From positions 116,126,001 to 116,190,000 of the forward strand of contig NC_135807.1 in the NCBI RefSeq assembly GCF_964213995.1: a DNA stretch of 64,000 nt, in the 5' to 3' direction. Positions within the stretch are counted from its first letter, which is position 1. Each line of letters begins with the position of its first letter. The notes beneath the pieces were generated by a model. That model did not search any database and was not told the DNA's origin. It worked only from the letters and a program-made list of their open reading frames with translations. The DNA comes from Mustelus asterias (lineage: Eukaryota). This document shows positions 13,581 to 57,494 of this stretch, one piece after another. The position numbers and the translations under genes were made by a program.

Positions 13581-13641
13581 AATATATACCTTCTGAAGTC
13601 AATATAACATTCTTAATATTTAGAAAAATAAAATGTCTACA

Positions 13642-14850
13642 GTGCAGCAGGTATACAACCTCACCATAACATTCCAACTCTTATACTCAATACTTTGATT
13701 TATAAAGGCCAATGTACCAAAAGCACTCTTTATGACCCTCTCTACCTGTGACGCCACTTTTAGGGAATTATGTATCTGTATTCCCAGATCCCTCTGTTCT
13801 ACTGCACTCTTCAGTGTCCTACCATTTACCTTGTATGTTCTACCTTGGTTTGTCCTTCCAAAGTGCAATACTTCACACTTGTCTGCATTAAACTCCATCT
13901 GCCATTTTTCAGCCCCTTTTTCTAGCTGGTCCAAATCCCTCTGCAAGCTTTGAAAACCTTCCTCACTGTCCACTACACCTCCAATCTTTGTATCATCAGC
14001 AAATTTGCTGATCCAATTTACCACATTATCATCCAGATCATTGATATAGGTGACAAACAACAATGGACCCAGCACTGATCCCTGTGGCACACCACTAGTC
14101 ACAGACCTCCACTCAGAGAAGCAATCCTCTACTACCACTCTCTGGCTTCTTCCATTGATGTGGAGATGCCGGCGTTGGACTGGGGTAAGCACAGTAAGAA
14201 GAGACTTACTGTTCTTCCATTGAGCCAATGTCTAATCCAATTTACTACCTCCCCATGTATACCTAGCAACTGAACCTTCCTAACTAACCTCCCATGCGGG
14301 ACCTTGTCAAAGGCCTTACTGAAGTCCATGTAGACAACATCCACTGCCTTCCCTTCATCCACTTTCCTGGTAACCTCCTCGAAAAACTCTAATAGATTGG
14401 TTAAACATGACCTACCATGCACAAAGCCATGTTGACTCTCCCTAATAAGTCCCTGTCTATCCAAATATTTGTAGATCCTATCTCTTTGTATTCCTTCCAA
14501 TAATTTACCTACTACTGACGTCAAACTTACCGGCCTATAATTTCCCACATTACTTTTTGAGCCTTTTTTAAACAACGGAACAACATGAGCTATCCTCCAA
14601 TCATCCGGCACCTCACCCGTGGATACCGATATTTTAAATATATCTGCGAGGGCCCCTGCAATTTCAACACTCGTCTCCTTCAACGGCCGAAGGAATACCC
14701 TGTCCAGTCCTGGGGATTTATCTACTCTGATTTGCCTCAAGACAGCAAGCACCACCTCCCATTTAATCTGTATAGATTCCTTGACCTCCCTACTTGTTTG
14801 CCTTATTTCCATAGACTCCAGGCCAGTTTCCTTAGTAAATACGGATGCAA
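13642..14850 (-). pseudogene. CR1 ORF2 reverse-transcriptase region
   Basis: ORFs 14132-14884 and 13620-14228 contain NYRPVSLTS, YMDFSKAFDKVPH, SGVPQGSVLGP and FADDTK; broken by a 53-bp insertion. Confidence 0.95.
14159..14211 (-). mobile_element. Penelope family B terminal micro-insertion
   Basis: Reverse complement of the 45455-45495 terminus; flanked by a 12-bp duplication TTCTTCCATTGA (14147-14158, 14212-14223). Confidence 0.8.
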
Positions 14851-15391
14851 AGGTCTCCCTGACTTCCCACATCCTGCCTGGCATTCTTTCTACTCTGAAG
14901 AAACAAAAACAACTTACTGGAACCTACCCTCGCCTCTGCCTGTTCATGCCGAAGCCTGTTTGAGCCAAAGCCGTCCCACTCTGCTCCCTCTCACTCCACT
15001 GCCCGCTCACAACGCTGCCCACTGGATAGAGTGGCCTGCTTTTTAAACCTTCCGCGCGCTACTGGCTGACATCAGGTGCCTGCGCAGTCTCGCTTTCCAC
15101 TCGCTGCCTCCCTTGCTCCGACTCAAAAAATTCACTGGGGCCTACTTCCGGTTTTACACTCCTGGCTGCCTTAGAGGAAAAGAAAACTCCGGAAAAAAAA
15201 GAGTAAGTTAAAAATACCTCTTACCCATTAGCTCTCCTCACTTGAACCACCACTCTAGCTGCTCCTCTGGAACAATGAACTCATCTACTGTGAGATCCTG
15301 GGTAGTAAGAAGCATGTATCTCATGACCCCAGTCTGTGGCTCCTGGCTGTGCTGCAATGGAAACTAAGATAGTGCCATCAGACATCATGGC

Positions 15392-15619
15392 TGATGCACT
15401 ATCAATTACGATACGAGGACTCCAGCGAGTGAGTGAAATAACAGGCTTTTAATCACAAAGAACTGGAGCACACCCTTGTAGCTAACCGGGCCCAGACTGA
15501 GGCAAGGAGGAGGAACCATCACCTTTATACCTCGTTCAGGTGGAAAGGGAGGAGTCTCGGGCCAGGTGCAGCAGGGGTGTGTCCAGGCATACAACATGTA
15601 ATTACAGTGGTTCACCACA
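15392..15619 (-). repeat. 3' LTR of Gypsy family 1
   Basis: Direct repeat of 19648-19895; adjacent polypurine tract AAAGAGGGGGTGAA on the minus strand. Confidence 0.97.
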
Positions 15620-15740
15620 TTCACCCCCTCTTTAAAAAAAGAGTCCGGCGGGGGTGAGATGGATGGAACAATATATACAGAGGCATGAAGATATATATAT
15701 ATATACAAGAGTCACGAAACTGAAGTAAGGCGTCGTCCCC

Positions 15741-17702
15741 TCACAGGTTCAGTCTGTCGGGCGGCTTGATCAGTCGCTGTGACCGCCGCAGTACCGGTTG
15801 TGGTGTTGCTTCCGATGGCAGGGTGGAACCGCTCGAGTCCGCCGTCGTCCCTTCTGGTCGGGTCCTGTGAGGCGACTCCGGGGGCTCAGGCGAGCTGCAT
15901 ACAGGGGACAAAGACGTAAGTGGACCTGGTGCTACCTGAACAACAGAGGGGTCTAGGGATGTGGGGTGGGGGGTCATAGTGGGCTCCGGGGCACCCGCAG
16001 GCACCAGGTCCCGGATAGAGACCGTGTCCTCCCGCCCATCGTGGTATGCCACATAGGCATATTGGGGGTTGGCATGGAGGAGCTGGACCTTTTCAACCAG
16101 GGGGTCTGACTTATGGGGTCGTACATGCCTCCGGAGCAGAACGGGGCCTGGGTACGTCAGCCACGGCGGTAGTGAGATTCCCGAGGAGGACTTCCTAGGG
16201 AAAGCAAACATCCGCTCATGGGGGGTGGCATTGGTAGCCGGACACAGGAGGGACCTAATTGAGTGCAGTGCATCTGGGAGGACTTCTTGCCAGCGGGTGA
16301 CTGGAAGACCTTTAGACCGTAGCGCTAGTAAAACGGCCTTCCAGACTGTCGCGTTCTCCCTCTCTACCTGCCCGTTTCCCCTGGGGTGATAGCTGGTAGT
16401 CCTACTCGAGGCTATGCCCTTAGAGAGCAGGTACTGACGCAGCTCATCACTCATGAAGGAGGATCCCCGGTCGCTGTGGATGTAGTTAGGGTAACCGAAC
16501 AGGGTGAAGAGGCCGTGCAGGGCCTTGACGACCGTGGTTGAAGTCATATCCGAGCAGGGAATGGTAAAAGGGAATCGGGAGTACTCATCTATAACATTGA
16601 GGAAATAGATGTTGCGGTCAGAAGAAGGAAGGGGCCCTTTGAAATCAATGCTGAGGTGTTCAAAGGGGCGGGTGGCTTTTATGAGGTGTGCCCTGTCCGG
16701 CCAATAGAAGTGCGGCTTACACTCCGCGCAGACCGGGCAGTGTCTGGTTATAGACCGGACGTCCTCAACAGAATGGGGCAGGTTGCAGGCCTTAATAAAG
16801 TGGTAGAGCCTGGTGACTCCCGGGTGACAGAGGTCATTGTGGAGAGTCTGTAGTTGGTTCGCTTGTGCGCTGGCACATGTTCCGCGAGACAGAGCGTCCG
16901 GAGGCTCATTGAGCTTCCCGGGTCGGTATAAGATATCATAATTGTAGGCGGAGAGCTCAATCCTCCACCTCAGTATTTTATCATTCTTAATCTTGCCCCT
17001 CTGCGCGATGTTGAGCATAAAAGCCACCGAACGTTGGTCCGTGAGCAAGGTGAACCGTCGGCCAGCTAAGTAGTGGCGCCAGTGTCGCACTGCTTCGACG
17101 ATGGCCTGAGCCTCCTTCTCGACAGAGGAGTGTCGAATTTCCAAGCCTTGGAGGGTTCGTGAGAAGAAGGCTACGGGTCTGCCTGCCTGGTTAAGGGTGG
17201 CGGCCAGGGCGAAGTCAGACGCGTCACTCTCCACCTGGAAGGGGATTGACTCGTCCACAGCGTGCATCGTGGCCTTCGCGATGTCCGCTTTGATGCAGTC
17301 GAAGGCCAAGCGGGCCTCTCCCGACAGGGGAAAAAGGGTGGATTTGATAAGTGGACGGGCCTTATCCGCATAATTCGGGACCCACTGGGCATAGTATGAG
17401 AAGAAGCCCAGGCATCTCCTCAGTGCTTTAAGAGTGGTGGGAAGGGGAAGTTCCATGAGGGGGCGCATGCGGTCAGGATCGGGGCCGATGACCCCGTTCT
17501 CCACTACACATCCCAGGATGGCGAGGCGGTGAGTGCGGAAGACACACTTCTCCTTATTGTAGGTCAGATTTAGGAGAGCGGCCATGCGAAGGAATTTATT
17601 GAGTTTTGTGTCGTGGCCCTGCTGATCATGGCCGCAGATGGTGACGTTATCCAGGTACGGGAAGGTGGCCCGCAGCCCGTTCTGGTCCACCATTCGGTCC
17701 AT
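15741..17702 (-). CDS. pol: Gypsy Pol: RT C-terminal half, RNase H, integrase (frameshifted from the upstream part)
   Basis: YLDN, VESDAS..EKEA..TDQ..DALSR, HHCC (LHNDLCH..CPVC), DDE (IDFKGP, HSDRGS, GQVERE); no chromodomain. Confidence 0.95.
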   Translation of the reverse strand: MDRMVDQNGLRATFPYLDNVTICGHDQQGHDTKLNKFLRMAALLNLTYNKEKCVFRTHRLAILGCVVENGVIGPDPDRMRPLMELPLPTTLKALRRCLGFFSYYAQWVPNYADKARPLIKSTLFPLSGEARLAFDCIKADIAKATMHAVDESIPFQVESDASDFALAATLNQAGRPVAFFSRTLQGLEIRHSSVEKEAQAIVEAVRHWRHYLAGRRFTLLTDQRSVAFMLNIAQRGKIKNDKILRWRIELSAYNYDILYRPGKLNEPPDALSRGTCASAQANQLQTLHNDLCHPGVTRLYHFIKACNLPHSVEDVRSITRHCPVCAECKPHFYWPDRAHLIKATRPFEHLSIDFKGPLPSSDRNIYFLNVIDEYSRFPFTIPCSDMTSTTVVKALHGLFTLFGYPNYIHSDRGSSFMSDELRQYLLSKGIASSRTTSYHPRGNGQVERENATVWKAVLLALRSKGLPVTRWQEVLPDALHSIRSLLCPATNATPHERMFAFPRKSSSGISLPPWLTYPGPVLLRRHVRPHKSDPLVEKVQLLHANPQYAYVAYHDGREDTVSIRDLVPAGAPEPTMTPHPTSLDPSVVQVAPGPLTSLSPVCSSPEPPESPHRTRPEGTTADSSGSTLPSEATPQPVLRRSQRLIKPPDRLNL

Positions 17703-18595
17703 TTCACGCTGGAAGACCGAAACCCCATTGGTGACGCCGAAGGGAACCCTAAGTGATAGAGGCGGCCATCCGCCTCGAAAGCCGTATATTTGCGGTCCTC
17801 CGGGCGGATGGGGAGCTGGTGGTAGGCCGATTTGAGGTCAATCGTGGAGAACACCCGGTATTGCGCAATCCGATTGACCATGTCGGATATGCGCGGAAGG
17901 GGATACGCATCCAGCTGCGTGTACCGGTTGATGGTCTGACTGTAATTGATGACCATCCGGTGTTTCTCCCCAGTTTTGACCACCACCACCTGCGCTCTCC
18001 AGGGGCTGGTGCTCGCCTCAATGATCCTTTCCTTCAGGAGCCGCTGGACCTCAGTCCTAATGAAGGTCCTGTCCCCCGCACTGTACCATCTGCTGTTGGT
18101 GGCAATGGGCTTACACTCGGGGGTGAGGTGTTCAAATAGCGAGGGAGGGGTGACTTGAAGGGTCGAAAGGCTGCAAGTGGTGCGTGGTGGGCAGTCTAGG
18201 AACTGTGGGTTGCAGACGGAGATCGGGGGAAGAGGCCCGTTGTACTGCAACGTGACACTCCTAAGATGGGTCAGGAAATCGAGCCCGAGGAGGACGAGAG
18301 CGCAGAGGTGTGGCAGCACCAGGAGCTTAAAATTTTCGTACTCGGTCCCCCGAACTGTAAGGGTCACCACACAGTGCCCGAGGACATCCACCGAGCGGGA
18401 CTTTGAGGCCAAGGAAATGGTTTGTTTGACTGGCAGCACAGAAAGGGCATAGCGGCGCACTGTATCGGGGGGGATGAAACTCTCCGTACTCCCGCAGTCG
18501 AACAAACAATTTCCCACGTGGCCGTTTACCTGGATGTCCATCATGGACCTGGCGAGTTGATGCAGACGGGATTGGTCTAGCTGGACCGCTGCCAC
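17570..18595 (-). pseudogene. pol: Gypsy protease and RT N-terminus
   Basis: LFDCGSTESFI protease motif, SPWRAQVVVV, DLKSAYHQ; frameshift near 17750. Confidence 0.93.
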
Positions 18596-18620
18596 CGTGG
18601 ATCCCGGAGAATGATTGACC

Positions 18621-18823
18621 GGCGTCTAAAATGGCAGCTCCCTTGTCTCACATGTGGCCGACGGCGTCCAAAATGGCGGTTCCCTTGACTCACACGCGGC
18701 CGATGGCCGTCCAAAATGGCGGTTCCCTTGACTCACACGTGGCCGATGGCGTCCAAAATGGTGGCTCCCTTGACTCACACGCGGCCGATGGCGTCCGAAT
18801 TTGTGGTTCCCTCGGGTCGCACG
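18621..18823 (-). repeat. 42-bp coding tandem repeat (~4.8 copies) between Gag zinc knuckle and protease
   Basis: Units start at 18621, 18663, 18705, 18748 and 18790; encode CESREPPFWTPSAT-like 14-mers. Confidence 0.92.
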
Positions 18824-18829
18824 CTACAC

Positions 18830-19619
18830 TGTTTGGCTTCGAGGACGACTTTGTCCTGCAGACTTTAACGTAGTGGCCTTTCTTTCCGCACCCAAAGCAG
18901 AACACTTCCCTCGCCGGGCAGCGTTGTCGGGGGTGCTTCCCCAGGCCGCAAAACTAGCACTTCAGACCCGCAACAGCCGCAGCAGTCGAATCGTTGGTGG
19001 GGCGCTGTGTGGCGTAAGTCTGTGGCCCTCCTAGATACTGGGGTGGCAGCGGCCGTGGTGCCCACGATGTAACCGCATGGTCGGGTGCGTACGCCTCGAG
19101 GTTATGGGATGCCACTTCTAGGGATTCAGCGAGTGTCACAGTTTTTGGTAGATCTAGCCCACCTTGCTCTAGCAGTCGCTGCCGAATGTAGTTGGACGAA
19201 ATGCCCGTAACGTAGGCATCGCTGATTAAGTCCTCCGTGTACTGCGCGGCGGATACAGCCTTGCAGTTACAGGCCCTGCCGAGTACCCGTAGTTCGCAGA
19301 GAAACTGTGCGCTCGATTCTCCCGGCCGCTGTCTTCGAGTAGCCAGAAGGTGCCTGGCGTAGACTTCATTTGTCCGTTTACTGTACTGGCTCTTTAGGAG
19401 CTCTAGCGCGTCCCTGCACATCTCAGCGTCACGGATGGTGGCATAAACCATGTCGCTTACCCAGGCGTGGAGCACGTGCAGCTTGTCTGAATCGGACTGG
19501 ATGGCAACAGAGGCTTCGAGGAAGGCTTCAAAGCACTTCAGCCAGTGATCGAAGCTGTTGGCAGCTCCCACAGCTTGCGGATCCAGGTTTAATTTATCGG
19601 GCTTTAGAATTTGCTCCAT
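18830..19619 (-). pseudogene. gag: Gypsy Gag with CCHC zinc knuckles (frameshifted near 18960)
   Basis: MEQILKPDKL..FDHWLKCF; CFGCGKKGHYVKVC; homologous to the family 2 Gag. Confidence 0.92.
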
Positions 19620-19647
19620 TCTGTTTTTTTATCTTTACGATTAAAAT

Positions 19648-19895
19648 TGATGCACCATCAATTAAGATACGAGGACTCCAGCGAGTGAGTGAAATAACAG
19701 GCTTTTAATCGCAAAGAACTGGAGCACACCCTTGTAGCTAACCTGGCCCAGACTGAGGCAAGGAGGAGGAACCATCACCTTTATACCTCGTTCAGGTGGA
19801 AAGGGAGGAGTCTCAGGTGGAAAGGGAGGAGTCTCGGGCCAGGTGCAGCAGGGGTCTGTCCAGGCATACACATGTAATTACAGTGGGTCACCACA
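19648..19895 (-). repeat. 5' LTR of Gypsy family 1
   Basis: Direct repeat of 15392-15619; TATA-like GTATAAAG and ATTAAA on the minus strand. Confidence 0.97.
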
Positions 19896-41997: not shown

Positions 41998-43052
41998 AAG
42001 AACAAAGAACAAAGAACAGTACAGCACAGGAAACAGGCCCTTCGGCCCTCCAAGCCTGTGCCGCTCCTTGGTCCAACTAGACCAATCGTTTGTATCCCTC
42101 CATTCCCAGGCTGCTCATGTGACTATCCAGGTAAGTCTTAAACGATGTCAGCATGCCTGCCTCCACCACCCTACTTGGCAGCGCATTCCAGGCCCCCACC
42201 ACCCTCTGTGTAAAAAACGTCCCTCTGATGTCTGAGTTATACTTCGCCCCTCTCAGCTTGAGCCCGTGACCCCTCGTGATCGTCACCTCCGACCTGGGAA
42301 AAAGCTTCCCACTGTTCACCCTATCTATACCCTTCATAATCTTGTATACCTCTATTAGATCTCCCCTCATTCTCCGTCTTTCCAAGGAGAACAACCCCAG
42401 TCTACCCAATCTCTCCTCATAGCTAAGACCCTCCATACCAGGCAACATCCTGGTAAACCTTCTCTGCACTCTCTCCAATGCCTCCACGTCCTTCTGGTAG
42501 TGCAGCGACCAGAACTGGACGCAGTACTCCAAATGTGGCCTAACCAGCATACTATACAGCTGCATCATCAGACTCCAGCTTTTATACTCTATACCCCGTC
42601 CTATAAAGGCAAGCATACCATATGCCTTCTTCACCATCTTCTCCACCTGTGTTGCCACCTTCAAGGATTTGTGGACTTGCACACCTAGGTCCCTCTGTGT
42701 TTCTATACTCCTGATGACTCTGCCATTTATTGTATAACTCCTCCCTACATTATTTCTTCCAAAATGCATCACTTCGCATTTATCCGGATTAAACTCCATC
42801 TGCCACCTCTCCGCCCAATTTTCCAGCCTTTCTATATCCTGCTGTATTGCCCGACAATGCTCTTCGCTATCCGCAATTCCAGCCATCTTCGTGTCATCCG
42901 CAAACTTGCTGATTACACCAGTTACACCTTCTTCCAAATCATTTATATATATCACAAATAGCAGAGGTCCCAGTACAGAGCCCTGCGGAACACCACTGGT
43001 CACAGACCTCCAGCCGGACTGCGGAACACCACTGGTCACAGACCTCCAGCCG
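41998..43052 (-). mobile_element. Young 5'-truncated CR1 LINE with open ORF2 C-terminus (42077-43039)
   Basis: SGVPQGSVLGP, FADDTK, RPHLEYC, ERVQRRFT, RGDLIEVYK, FFTQRVV; (AAGAACA)n tail. Confidence 0.97.
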
Positions 43053-43532
43053 TGTATATGTTATATGTTGTTTTGGGTGTTGAAGGGAGCTGTTCAGTGG
43101 CATTAAGCCTGAATAATAACTATTTATTGATGGCCATAACTATGTGCAGATATAAAAGACAGTAGGCTTCTTCAGACCAAGCCATGAGCTATCTCCATTC
43201 AGACTACTCCTTGTCATGTGATTCCCTTAACATCATCATGTGGGCAGACTGCTTCTCCAGTCCCACATTAACCCTTTCAGTCCTGAACACCCTGACGCCA
43301 CACCTCCCCCACAGTTTTTCATTCAAATCTATTTACATGCTACATTTTCTCCCTGCAGATCTCTGTTTTGGAGGTTTAAATGGTCTGGAAGTTTTTCAAC
43401 TCTCCCTAATCTTGACCTTTTGAAGTTTGGAGGATTGGTAGTCTTAACATGGATCTCTTTGTTCTGACTTGGCTGTTCTTCAGTAGAAGCTTTAGTGGAT
43501 GTTTTTTTTTGTTTGTTTGAAGTTCAACACTT

Positions 43533-52510: not shown

Positions 52511-53072
52511 CTTTTCTCTCCTACAGATGCTGCCAGACCTGCTGAGATTTTCCAGCGTTTTGCCTTTTGGTTTCAGATTCCAGCATCCGCAATAATTTGC
52601 TTTTAATTTGCTTTTAAGCAAATTTCCTGAATTTCCAACCGTTTTAAAGTAAAGTGTCCGTTTCGAATTTCAGCCAGTTCGGTTGAGTGTGACACAACCT
52701 TTTAATTGGTTGGCACAAGGATAGAACTAATCAGCTGTGTGGAGCAGTGATGTGCATCAATTGAACACGAGGCACGAAGCTTCGGTAACAGAAGGCTTTT
52801 ATTGTCTAACAATGGAACTAATAGAACGTAAACACACTATCCCAGACTGACGAGGTCCCGCCCGAGCAGGGGGTCTTATACCTCTCCCAGGAGGCGGAGT
52901 CCGACTGGGATGTGCCACAACAGTAACAACCACAGGTGTATCAATCCCACCCTAGACCAACAACAACATTAGAACAATCCCACAGTGGGAACCAACGATG
53001 GTTCACCACATTCACCCCTCCTTTGAGAACAAAGGCCGGCGGGGTACGAAAACAGACTAAAATGTCAACAGA

Positions 53073-54772
53073 TTATAAGTTCAGACGGTCTGGAGGACCG
53101 CACCGTCGTTGTGACCTCCTCAATACCGGCGGTGACACCGGAGTAGGTGCTTGCGATGGCGTTCTCCCCAAAACAGCGTCCAGCTGTTCTCCCACGGACT
53201 CACGGGCCGGTTGACCCTGATGAAGCGGTAGTGCAGGGGATCCCGGTACATTCTGCAATGGTGCCGATCTCCGGGGCTCAGGCAAGCTGTGCATTGGAGT
53301 AAAACTGTTAAGCACTGGTCCCGGTGCTGTCCGCGCGACGTCCGGGGGAGAAATAAGTGATAAGGGATTCGTCACTGGGGGTATGGGAGCGACAGGAGTT
53401 GCTACGTCCCCTGCGGGCGCCAGGTCTCGGATCGAGACTGTGTCCTCTCGCCCGTCAGGATATGCCACATAGGCATACTGAGGGTTGGCGTGGAGGAGGT
53501 GGACCTGTTCGACCAAGGGGTCGGACTTGCGGGCCCTTACATGTCGCTGCAGAAGGACGGGTCCTGGGTACGTCCTGGGAGACTGGAAGGCCTTTGGACT
53601 TCAGCGCCAATAGGACAGCCTTCCAGACTGTAGCATTCTCTCTTTCCACCTGTCCATTACCCCTAGGGTTGTAACTCGTGGTCCTACTAGAGGCAATCCC
53701 GTATGAGAGCAGGAATTGCCTCAAGTCATTACTCATGAACGACGAGCCCCTGTCGCTATGGATATAGCTGGGGTACCCGAACAGGGTAAAAAGATCACGG
53801 AATGCCTTGATCACCGTGGCAGTCGATGTGTGCGCGCAGGGGACAACAAATGTGAACCGGGAGTACTCATCTATTATGTTCAGAAAGTACACGTTCCGAT
53901 CTGTTAAAATCCACACTCAGCCTCTCGAAGGGGCGAATGGCCTTGACCAAATGTGCCCGGTCAGGTCGGTAAAAGTGCGGTTTGCATTCCGCGCAAATCC
54001 GACAGCTCCTTGTCACCGACCTGACGTCCTCCACCGAGTAAGGCAGGTTGCGGGCTTTGACAAAGTGGTAGAGCCGAGTGACCCCAGGATGGCACAGGTC
54101 ATTATGGAGGGCGTTCAAGCGATCCTCCTGCATAGTAGCGCATGTTCCGCGCGAGAGGGCATCCGAGGGCTCATTGAGTTTCCCTGGACGATACATGATA
54201 TCGTAGTTATAGGTGGAGAGTTCAATTCTCCACCGCAAGATCTTATCATTCTTGATCTTGCCCCTCTGCGTGTTGTTGAACATGAACGCCACGGACCGCT
54301 GGTCCGTGATCAGGGTGAACCGCTTCCCCGCCAGGTAATGGCGCCAGTGTCTGACGGCCTCCACAATGGCCTGGGCCTCCTTTTCCACCGCTGAATGCCG
54401 AATTTCGGGGCCTTGGAGGGTGCGGGAAAAAAACGCGACGGGCCTGCCCGCCTGGTTTAGTGTGGCGGCCAGGGCGAAATCAGATGCATCGCTTTCCACC
54501 TGAAAAGGGATGGATTGGTCTACCGCGTGCATCGTGGCTTTCGCGATGTCGTGTTTCAATTCCTTGAAGGCCAATTGGGCCTCTGGCGTGAGTGGAAAAG
54601 TCGTGGACTTAATAAGCGGACGGGCTTTGTCCGCGTAGTTGGGGACCCACTGCACATAATAGGAGAAGAAGCCTAGGCATCTTCTCAGTGCTTTTGCGCT
54701 AGCGGGCAAGGGAAGTTCAGCAAGGGGGCGCATACGGTCTGGATCAGGGCCAATGACCCCGTTTTCCACCAC
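53073..54772 (-). pseudogene. pol: Gypsy Pol RNase H and integrase, broken by small deletions
   Basis: ORFs 53867-54772, 53455-53916 and 53073-53516 align to family 1 Pol; a segment is missing near 53578. Confidence 0.95.
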
Positions 54773-56917
54773 TTATCCCAGGATGGCTAACCGGCGCGTA
54801 CGGAATACACACTTCTCCCTGTTGTAGGTCAAATTCAGGCGAGATGCAGTGCGTAAAAAGTTCTGGAGATTTGTGTCATGGTCCTGCTGATCACGGCCGC
54901 AGATGGTGACATTATCCAGGTACGGGAAGGTAGCCCGCAGCCTGTTCTGGTCCACCATTTGGTCCATAGCACGCTGGAAGACCGAGACCCCATTGGTGAC
55001 ACCAAATGGAACCCGAAGAAACTGATACAGATGACCATCCGCCTCAAAGGCCGTGTAGTGTCGGTCCTCTGGGCGAATGGGGAGTTGGTGGTAGGCGGAC
55101 TTAAGGTCTATGGTGGAGAACACCCGGTACTGCGCAATCTGATTGACCATATCAGATATGTGCGGGAGGGGATACGCATCCAGCTGCGTATATCGATTAA
55201 TGGTCTGACTGTAATCAATGACCATCCGGGGTTTGTTCCCGCTCTTGACCACCACAACCTGTGCTCTCCACGGACTAACACTGGGCTGTATGATCCCTTC
55301 TTTGAGGAGTCGCTGAACCTCAGATCTGATGAAGATCCAATCTTCAGCGCTGTAATGCCTACTTTTAGTAGCGATGGGCTTGCAGCCTGGTACCAGATTC
55401 TTGAATAAAGAGGGTGTGGTGATCTTTAATGTAGAAAGATTGCATGCGGGACGCTTTGGACAATTTGGAGACTGCAGCTGTTCCCCTACTGTCAGCGAAG
55501 GGAGTGGCCCACCGTACTGTAGGATCACACTCTTCATGTGGACCATAAAGTTTAGTCCGAGGAGAATTGGTGCGCAAAGATGCGGCAACACAAGGAGCCT
55601 GAATTGCTCGTAAATTGTGCCTTGCACTTTCAAGGTTACCACACAACGTCCTAGCACAGGGACAGACCGGGACCTTGATGCCATAGAGATTGTCTGTTTG
55701 GCAGGTTGAATCTGGAGTCCACACCTCTTTACAGTGTCAGGGTGAATAAAGCTCTCAGTGCTCCCGCTGTCAAACAGACAATAAATTGCACGACCATTTA
55801 CCTGTATATCCATCATCGAACAGTCAAGCCTGTGGTGCTTAGCCTGGTTCAGGGTGATCGACGCCACCGTTGGTCCGTGATCGTCACTGCAGGCAGCTGA
55901 GGTCGATGCTGAGGACCCCTGCTGGTCACTCATGGTCATCGTCGACCAAAATGGCCACCCCCATGAATCGCACATGGTTGAGGGCGCCAAACGTAGCGAC
56001 TCCTGGTGGTCATCCTCCTCCGACTCCGTCGACCACAATGGCGTCGTCCTGGACTCGCACGTGGACGAACCCCGTGAGTACTTCGACGTCGATGGTGATG
56101 ATCCCCGTTCCGAAGGGTCACAGGCCGCACTGCCGTTCTTGGGCTTCGATCTGCACACCTTCGCATAATGCCCCTTTTTACCGCATAGGTTATAGACCAC
56201 CGCTTTAGCGGGACACTTTTGTCGTGGATGCTTGGCTCCTCCGCAGAAGTAGCACCGCGGGCTGCATGGGGCTGCAGCCGTCGTCGGGTCTACATGGGAG
56301 CACGCCATAATACTGCACGTCGAGCCCGTGGGGCGAGGAGGGATTTGCGACTGCTCCTGCCACGTTGTCTCCACATGGTCCTCCGGATACAGGACCAAGC
56401 TCTTCGAAGCCGCCTCAAGCATTTCAGCCAATTCCATAGCTTGGGTCAGGTTGAGATTCCCCTTTTCTAGCAGCTTGAGACGGATGTATGAAGACCCTAC
56501 CCCTGCCACAAACGCATCTCGGGCAAGGTCATACATGTACTGCTCAGCCGACACAGCTTTGCAGTCACAGCCCCTGGCAAGCTGCAAGAGCTCATTGGCG
56601 TAATCCTCCATGGTTTCGCCCGACTGCCGACGTCGTGTAGCGAGGAGGTAACGAGCGTGGATCTCGTTGGGAGGTTTCGTGTAGCGCTTTTTTAAAAGCT
56701 CGAGGGCCCTCGGGTAAGTGGTGGCCGCACGGATCGGGAGGTAGACTGTGTCGCTTACCCTTGCATGGAGGACCCGGAGTCTGTCATCATCTGTGGTGAC
56801 CGCTGCGGAGGCTGCCAGGTAGTCTTCAAAACACTTCAGCCAGTGGTCGAAGGTGTTAGAAGCGCCCACCGCACGTGGATCTAGCGTCAGACGTTCTGGC
56901 TTAAGGATTTGCTCCAT
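54773..56917 (-). CDS. gag-pol: Gypsy Gag-protease-RT single ORF (ends at a frameshift)
   Basis: MEQILKPERL start at 56917, zinc knuckles, LFDSGSTESFI, DLKSAYHQ, PFGVTNG, YLDN. Confidence 0.95.
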   Translation of the reverse strand: MEQILKPERLTLDPRAVGASNTFDHWLKCFEDYLAASAAVTTDDDRLRVLHARVSDTVYLPIRAATTYPRALELLKKRYTKPPNEIHARYLLATRRRQSGETMEDYANELLQLARGCDCKAVSAEQYMYDLARDAFVAGVGSSYIRLKLLEKGNLNLTQAMELAEMLEAASKSLVLYPEDHVETTWQEQSQIPPRPTGSTCSIMACSHVDPTTAAAPCSPRCYFCGGAKHPRQKCPAKAVVYNLCGKKGHYAKVCRSKPKNGSAACDPSERGSSPSTSKYSRGSSTCESRTTPLWSTESEEDDHQESLRLAPSTMCDSWGWPFWSTMTMSDQQGSSASTSAACSDDHGPTVASITLNQAKHHRLDCSMMDIQVNGRAIYCLFDSGSTESFIHPDTVKRCGLQIQPAKQTISMASRSRSVPVLGRCVVTLKVQGTIYEQFRLLVLPHLCAPILLGLNFMVHMKSVILQYGGPLPSLTVGEQLQSPNCPKRPACNLSTLKITTPSLFKNLVPGCKPIATKSRHYSAEDWIFIRSEVQRLLKEGIIQPSVSPWRAQVVVVKSGNKPRMVIDYSQTINRYTQLDAYPLPHISDMVNQIAQYRVFSTIDLKSAYHQLPIRPEDRHYTAFEADGHLYQFLRVPFGVTNGVSVFQRAMDQMVDQNRLRATFPYLDNVTICGRDQQDHDTNLQNFLRTASRLNLTYNREKCVFRTRRLAILG

Positions 56918-57494
56918 ACTCTCCTTTCTTTTTCCCTTCCGTCGAGAGCTTAATGTTAGACAATAAAATTGATGCGCATCAATTGAACACGAGGCACGAA
57001 GCTTCGGTAACAGAAGGCTTTTATTGTCTAACAATGGAACTAATAGAACGTAAACACACTATCCCAGACTGACGAGGTCCCGCCCGAGCAGGGGGTCTTA
57101 TACCTCTCCCAGGAGGCGGAGCCCGACTGGGATGTGCCACAACAGTAACAACCACAGGTGTATCAATCCCACCCTAGCCCAACAACAACATTAGAACAAT
57201 CCCACAGTGGGAACCAACGATGGTTCACCACAAGCAGATAAGGCTGTTTGCTAAATTTTATTTATTTTCCTCATTTCCACCTTTCTCGGTGTCATTGTTT
57301 TCCTCCACATTTCACATAATCGTTGCATGTGACTCTTAAATGTAACAGTGCGGTTCTTCAAGAGCTGAGGGGATAATTCATCCAGTGTCCTTTCTACACT
57401 GTAGGCCATGCCTTGACTTGCATATTATTGTACCATACAAAATGAACTCTCGGGAAGATTTCTGTGAGGCTGTGCCCTCTGGGTTGAGTTGCAC

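Follow-up and report, generated by a model that had tools for sequence, protein, structure and literature searches.

How does a retrotransposon begin minus-strand synthesis when no tRNA primer site follows its 5' LTR? The question is raised by element 1 (Gypsy family 1), which lies on the minus strand at 15392-19895 of the 64,000-nt stretch of Mustelus asterias DNA analysed here (the window). Its LTR edges were set by LTR/LTR alignment plus a GCCAT target-site duplication (TSD), and the 5' and 3' LTRs differ by six substitutions, one 1-nt indel and one 21-nt duplication. Pfam places PR, RT, RNase H and IN in Gypsy order, the best PDB match is Ty3 Gag-Pol (E 1e-79), and the closest named protein homologs are from rays and catsharks (up to 81% identity), followed by sea anemone and Seison. 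With the order gag-PR-RT-RH-IN between TG..CA LTRs, a polypurine tract and a TSD, element 1 is a chromodomain-less Ty3/Gypsy LTR retrotransposon. The features of this element and of a second one, E2, all on the minus strand, are the following:

19648-19895, minus: 5' LTR, TGTGGTG...CATCA, 248 nt (LTR/LTR alignment and TSD GCCAT)
19780-19785, minus: TATA box TATAAA, 83 nt 5' of the predicted cut (putative function)
19751-19756, minus: initiator (Inr) TCAGTC, its A at 19754 being the predicted transcription start and primer 5' end
19703-19754, minus: predicted self-primer, cap to AUUAAAA-3', 52 nt (from motif spacing and the ends of read-through products)
19720-19726, minus: TGCTCCA, predicted partner of the gag start region UGGAGCA (folding prediction)
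19703-19717, minus: primer segment pairing with the PBS, with ATTAAA at 19704-19709 inside (pairing analysis)
19700-19702, minus: GCC directly after the duplex; putative cut between 19703 and 19702
19645-19663, minus: AATTGATG/CATCAATT inverted repeat across the LTR end, a U5-IR-like hairpin (sequence and fold)
19647, minus: 1-nt spacer A between LTR end and PBS
19632-19646, minus: PBS position, which pairs with a segment of the element's own LTR and does not begin with TGG
18954-19619, minus: gag, ATG 28 nt past the LTR; premature stop in the window copy
15741-18625, minus: pol, encoding PR, RT with YLDN, RNase H and a chromodomain-free IN; divided between two frames in the window copy
15620-15633, minus: polypurine tract (sequence)
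15392-15619, minus: 3' LTR, 228 nt
52748-57232, minus: E2, a second family of the same lineage, TSD CTGCT

The U5-IR-like inverted-repeat motif is also present in E2. Between gag and protease, element 1 carries tandem repeats of 42-43 nt (18623-18834). Elsewhere in the window there are decayed RT-bearing pieces, probably LINEs (13620-14923 and 42077-43060), and repeat families D1-D3 with many SINE copies, which we take to resemble the shark HE1 SINE.

A first-pass annotation had read the PBS position as an inverted repeat of the element's own LTR, 1 nt from its edge, burying the ATTAAA hexamer in a duplex. Both points hold. The leader of element 1 opens A-TTTTAATCGTAAAGA, that is, the spacer A followed by the PBS position, and starts ATTTT instead of TGG. 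On the plus strand 19632-19646 reads TCTTTACGATTAAAA, and on the sense strand 19703-19717 reads TCTTTGCGATTAAAA; in the RNA they give 15 contiguous pairs, one of them G-U, beginning 1 nt past the 5' LTR end (19648) and covering ATTAAA at 19704-19709. When the first 25 nt of the leader were shuffled 3000 times, 15 pairs were never reached. The G-U pair, included in the original description of the duplex, is present in the window copy but is not a family trait, being decay private to this copy, the only carrier among 30 of its family. In E2 the duplex is a perfect 15 bp (57019-57033 with 56954-56968), the letters differ from those of element 1 and the offset is again 1 nt; here 11 of 3000 shuffles reached 15 pairs. 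The TATA-like box, said to lie about 65 nt upstream of the pairing segment, measures 63-68 nt from it.

Conservation of the pairing

Covariation among relatives had been named as a test of this pairing, and the duplex was found to be kept with different letters both within the own genome and outside it. The 30 best copies each of the element 1 and E2 families all start ATTTTA (60 copies), and the 30 of element 1 comprise 23 of the ATT/AAT type, six of the compensatory AATAAA/TTTATT type and one discordant copy. A pattern joining LTR end and gag start, blind to the duplex, gave 2234 matches in the own genome and none in the control. Among the first 30 of these loci, taken unselected, 21 pair over at least 10 nt at an offset of at most 2, and nine fail: six keep the register but carry point changes, one is missing the segment and two lack a PBS-like leader. 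Across subfamilies the PBS of own-genome loci matches the 5' LTR of its own copy, copy by copy. In an alignment of 13 hand-picked own-genome copies, 169/169 cells pair and six of the 13 pairs change on both sides; its score was reached by 0/500 shuffles, which do not account for relatedness, and shifted registers pair at 43-50%.

Scans of outside genomes returned 89 loci, 57 of them with a gag start and 56 of these with upstream DNA. A junction-free recount, taking in all loci including those left out of the family list described below, found at least 11 strict Watson-Crick pairs in 45/56, with letters that differ between relatives, as opposed to 0/50 control windows inside pol. The duplex starts 1-3 nt after a CA in 43 of these 45; of the 11 loci below 11 pairs, L086 and L136 show a duplex on closer look. 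Pairings across families centre on 5-8 nt, and the 13/812 that reach at least 12 are mostly among related families. Finally, 33 family representatives (8 own-genome, 25 outside) were hand-chosen among intact copies, with offsets limited to 1-2; L084 and L148 were dropped, the L151 junction was set by hand and that of L078 was moved 3 nt. In this set the first 12 pairs are Watson-Crick in 395/396 cases, whereas the predicted loop pairs include 51 G-U among 378. In none of the 33 families does the base opposite the spacer form a Watson-Crick pair, and a helix of at least 4 pairs begins right after the segment in 17/33 versus 6.0 expected. The pairing is thus lineage-wide, fixed near the LTR edge and kept by compensatory change. 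Variants occur in L136, L118 and L152, with a 2-3-nt offset or a segment without GCC after it.

The absence of the TGG of a tRNA primer site, noted for element 1 at first inspection, extends to the 60 own-genome copies of the two families and to 25 TSD-fixed loci, none of which starts with TGG. Of 14 LTR pairs from other Gypsy lineages of the same genome, run through the same pipeline, 12 had TGG, with self pairing limited to 5-7 pairs. The own genome also carries an abundant second Gypsy lineage (L383-L395) with a PNMA-like Gag, ORFs up to 1994 aa, long LTRs and the tRNA-type PBS TGGAGGCACCGC, a third lineage (L400-L401) with PBS TGGCGACGAGG, and large tandem tRNA gene arrays (L160-L209, contig C16) of about 1.8-kb spacing, mostly Thr and Lys calls.

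Ends of the putative primer

In all eight own-genome families a TATA box lies at -83 to -88 and the Inr A at -51 to -55 from the 3' end of the segment (-52 in E2), and the CAGT of the initiator is invariant in the alignment of own-genome copies (alignment A3). Outside families showed TATA and initiator at matching spacing in 1/25 only, and the motif spacing would support a primer length of 52 nt for the own-genome families alone. This length was predicted before the searches for read-through junctions. If the primer stays attached, the plus strand should read LTR end, spacer and then the inverted segment past the PBS, and aberrant products of this structure, LTR end, spacer and inverted copy of the paired segment, do exist. 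Three junction patterns gave 18, 27 and 2 matches (47 loci) and 0 control matches, and one of three BLAST searches added 13 loci, for a total of 60. They comprise six products that stop at the initiator, seven that stop elsewhere in the LTR, 12 fold-back elements, 11 insertion-type solo LTRs and 24 that are long, interrupted or without a verified TSD.

The six stops at the initiator, out of 13 inverted copies ending inside the LTR, fall 0-2 nt past the Inr A, three of them exactly on it. L336, L339 and L342 stop at -52, L274 at -53 (Inr -52), L240 at -54 and L249 at -55 (both Inr -53). They switch to six different internal sites with short microhomology, four belong to the element 1 family, and L249, L274, L339 and L342 have perfect 5-bp TSDs. 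With a tolerance chosen after the data were seen, the binomial P for 6/13 is 5.6e-8 (3-nt window) or 1.1e-6 (5-nt window); six of the nine products that reach -52 stop at the initiator (P 4.4e-8), a count from which the BLAST-query bias is removed. The other seven stop at -23, -25, -38, -45, -71, -164 and -167. L279, L283 and L273, interrupted by other repeats, and L268 and L277, with a poly-G alignment break, are omitted from the count. These products could also come from a plus-strand PBS copy annealing to an uncut second genome and running to its cap, a route that would still map the start and need a self-derived primer, without proving a cis 52-nt primer. It had been suggested at first that the primer might be internal and not the first nucleotides of the transcript. 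The pairing segment is indeed internal, but the primer appears to be 5'-terminal, about 52 nt long, with its 3' part pairing.

The 12 fold-back elements are flanked by TSDs, and 11 are independent (L326 and L327 share flanks). These mini-elements (L241, L243, L248, L252, L254, L255, L281, L286 and L326-L329) measure 395-437 nt and consist of LTR, A and inverted U3-R. Both of their ends are of the U3 type and their 5-bp TSDs are perfect, so that they would resemble MITEs.

At the other end, the primer is bounded by the mismatch at which the duplex stops, 1 nt from the LTR edge. The 11 insertion-type solo LTRs carry a short minus-strand piece inserted at the predicted cut, seven of them with perfect 5-bp TSDs, and nine resume at the GCC after the segment. 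Six of these nine coincide with an imperfect inverted repeat in U5 (6-10 nt), whose homology alone could place them, and for this reason they do not prove the cut; the longer repeat in these six also overturned the view that such solo LTRs have only 1-5 nt of microhomology. Better cases for a cut at GCC are L287, in which the minus-strand copy terminates precisely on the first G past the segment, together with L257, L272 and L282, which resume at that G with 0-1 A of upstream homology. In L288, otherwise a normal E2 copy, a further 8 nt of LTR complement replace leader sequence ahead of a normal gag, which would be the outcome expected from copying of the primer.

Self-priming of some form is very probable for this lineage, and we consider it likely, from the motif spacing and the product ends taken together, that minus-strand synthesis is primed by the capped first ~52 nt of the element's own transcript, pairing by their last 13-20 nt. 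Transcription would start at the A of TCAGT, and folding of the RNA in cis would bring the 13-20 nt at the 3' end of the 5' fragment onto the PBS. Cleavage would follow directly behind AWUAAA(A), the probable nuclease being the RNase H of the element, as in Tf1. The primer would often stay attached and be copied during plus-strand synthesis, so that the PBS is rewritten with LTR sequence; this renewal would explain why the pairing is almost purely Watson-Crick. For the first strand transfer, the short stretch from the cut to the poly(A) site would serve. The early suggestion that the lineage may self-prime gains support from compensatory pairing held at a constant offset, from the missing tRNA site and chromodomain and from the products ending at the predicted start.

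Alternative explanations and significance

The duplex could be only regulatory, masking the 5' poly(A) signal together with some of the gag start region, while a host RNA such as an internal tRNA fragment primes. In favour of this, AATAAA or ATTAAA lies inside the duplex in 24/33 families, and the tRNA comparison, of four leaders, spanned just 37 distinct host calls of 10 anticodon types, an incomplete set. However, within that set the best pairing was 6 strict Watson-Crick pairs, internal tRNA segments included, and only 1 nt at the CCA 3' end, and an Rfam search of the leader returned two chance-level matches, neither credible. The other 9/33 families pair GTTAAA, TTTAAA, GATAAA, ATTAAC or TGAAGA, the last (L100) resembling no poly(A) signal, and the AATAAA of L078 and L087 lies beyond the duplex, 26-28 nt downstream. 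Families whose paired hexamer is non-canonical or missing have the duplex all the same, so occlusion is not the conserved reason for it. Moreover, occlusion requires neither the 1-nt offset nor the avoidance of G-U pairs, and a fixed host RNA cannot follow a PBS that tracks the LTR letter for letter. We regard priming by a host RNA as quite improbable; silencing of the 5' poly(A) site may occur, but is probably secondary, a side benefit of the duplex. A search for poly(A)-tailed retrocopies that would map the poly(A) site gave 3 matches versus 5 in the control, none usable. Leaders measure only 16-52 nt, and folding often predicts that the region of the gag start pairs with RNA immediately upstream of the primer segment (in the window, 19720-19726 with 19612-19618, a fold prediction without a control); if this were true, primer cleavage might switch translation.

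Three further explanations concern the source of the primer and the nature of the junctions. The 3' copy of the segment could prime instead, if the 3' end of the genomic RNA were trimmed or cut back to AWUAAA(A) and paired with the PBS, circularising the RNA, with R running from the cap to the end of the segment. Such priming accounts for the same complementarity and the same Watson-Crick purity and would make R longer; many of the junctions extend across U3 as far as the LTR start (the 12 fold-back elements), and L263, L266, L285 and L289 continue into inverted internal sequence. Nevertheless, the pile-up at the initiator would need an extra step, the end of L287 and the resumption of L257, L272 and L282 fit a template beginning at the G after the segment, and a misdirected second-strand transfer also yields long inversions, which leaves priming from the 3' copy unlikely, though the least so of the alternatives. 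Somewhat less likely again is priming in trans, by an LTR transcript that is short and capped (a paused or prematurely terminated one, or one made from a solo LTR), with its 3' end trimmed to the duplex edge and the genomic RNA left uncut. It would give the same 52-nt primer and the same initiator-stopping products, and thousands of LTR copies could supply it; but the cis duplex, predicted at a probability of 0.86-0.99 in 29 of 30 folded families, would be expected to block such a primer, PBS and own 5' LTR agree in each copy, and products ending or resuming at GCC fit a cut template. Lastly, the inverted junctions could stem from rearrangement of host DNA, or from misassembly, at a short inverted repeat, and so be uninformative on priming. 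Short inverted repeats promote template switching, which lends this some support, and the junctions, of which the 24 interrupted or without a verified TSD are part, are known from the assembly alone. The 11 independent fold-back elements, four of the initiator-stopping integrants and seven of the insertion-type solo LTRs have, on the contrary, perfect 5-bp TSDs at integrase-type ends, and host events would not favour the initiator, so we give this explanation the least credence of all.

Priming by the transcript's own 5' fragment, which we prefer, points to a large and abundant animal lineage (2234 LTR-end/gag-start matches in the own genome) that self-primes with a different primer design. 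Such a lineage would be independent of the tRNA supply and would lack the site targeted by tRNA fragments, and annotation tools based on the PBS would miss or misassign it. TSD-flanked aberrant copies would offer a DNA-only way to map the primers and start sites of any self-primed element.

Relation to known elements

The 26 RT-RH rows of the lineage form one clade (support 100/99) apart from two tRNA-PBS lineages, the only outgroups in the tree; a chromovirus RT was sought as a further outgroup in seven own-genome chromodomain regions, which held none. As had been proposed, the lineage is without a chromodomain: neither this domain nor SH3_Tf2-1 was found in 31 polyproteins at E 0.01, nor in the proteins of the window or of L061. 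Retrotrans_gag matched 12/31 of the relatives' polyproteins, and the acidic RNase H motifs of a relative align with those of Ty3. No confirmed relative was found in the viral contigs scanned. Element size, single ORF and LTRs of about 245 nt presumably liken the lineage to Cigr-1 of Ciona, and the LTR ends bring to mind the CsRN1 clade, which we take to be tRNA-Trp primed. In own-genome families the ends TGTGGTG...CATCA fit the CsRN1 motif TGTGGYG...MSYYAMA as tabulated in PMC3601003 (Table 3), whereas most outside relatives begin TGATGTG or TGTTGTG. Name and range of the Cigr-1 clade are given in the main account of PMC6238403; among the supplement files searched of PMC6238403 and PMC8556966, both of which have further files that could hold the clade assignment, a motif search found nothing. 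Saci2/lennie was ruled out as a match by a 4-bp TSD and the tRNA sites reported in the relevant part of PMC12471100. The portions searched of the literature (including PMC7472051, PMC12471100, PMC6238403, PMC6934838, PMC2864245, PMC2836005, PMC13524379 and PMC2774666) held no description of self-priming in a chromodomain-less animal Gypsy clade; Repbase, GyDB or subscription papers may mention one. The group name 'Selfy' had no match in the literature searched, nor in the Ginger paper.

The RT active site is YxDN in 85/111 motif-bearing homologs and YxDD in 26/111; young copies with identical LTRs also carry YLDN (L061, L062, L067 and L068), and our search found no paper on YLDN with retrotransposons. 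This naturally common YxDN active site is a further testable oddity. In the window the motif lies near 17660 (element 1) and 54920 (E2). Gypsy elements, some with LTRs and TSDs, also occur in genomes filed as bacterial MAGs (L151-L159), likely as host contamination.

Retroviruses have a 5' poly(A) hairpin, a U5-IR stem and U5:AUG pairing, with a separate tRNA PBS. The leader described here would resemble theirs in the hexamer placed in a stem, the hairpin across the U5/PBS edge and the predicted pairing near the gag start. What sets it apart from the retroviral 5' poly(A) hairpin is that the PBS itself acts as the occluding strand.

For Tf1 of fission yeast self-priming is proven, and among animal elements it has been linked to the sushi relatives of Tf1; by the title of a paper on Tf1, its self primer is reportedly not removed. 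According to the sections available of PMC7175516, PMC4600332 and PMC5341516, the Tf1 transcript's first 11 bases pair with the PBS and are cut by RNase H. The same sections let the present lineage be likened to Tf1/Tf2 of S. pombe, Tj1 of S. japonicus and Tf1/sushi elements in the lack of a tRNA and in a PBS complementary to the own LTR RNA; in Tf1/sushi the primer is released by cleavage, which in the present lineage is inferred. In plants, self-primers of Tcn1 chromoviruses and TAR copia elements have been predicted by complementarity of at least 10 nt, 0-5 nt after the 5' LTR, in a survey that worked by complementarity alone (PMC6317226). The present lineage has the complementarity used there, but hosts and lineages differ from Tcn1 and TAR.

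As in Tf1/sushi, the PBS is complementary to the own 5' LTR and lies within 0-5 nt of it. Unlike the first ~11 nt that pair in Tf1, the paired segment of 13-20 nt starts about 37 nt after the predicted cap and ends at a poly(A)-like hexamer, in a putative primer of about 52 nt; the Inr and the read-through ends would place the primer start 52-55 nt upstream of the segment's 3' end. On balance we lean towards a widespread animal Gypsy clade, separate from Tf1/sushi and mostly YxDN, that would prime with a capped ~52-nt fragment cut after the poly(A) hexamer, retain this primer and renew its PBS each cycle, while failed copies record the primer 5' end to the base. The mechanism thus likely resembles that of Tf1, but in a lineage without a chromodomain and with a longer, differently built primer.
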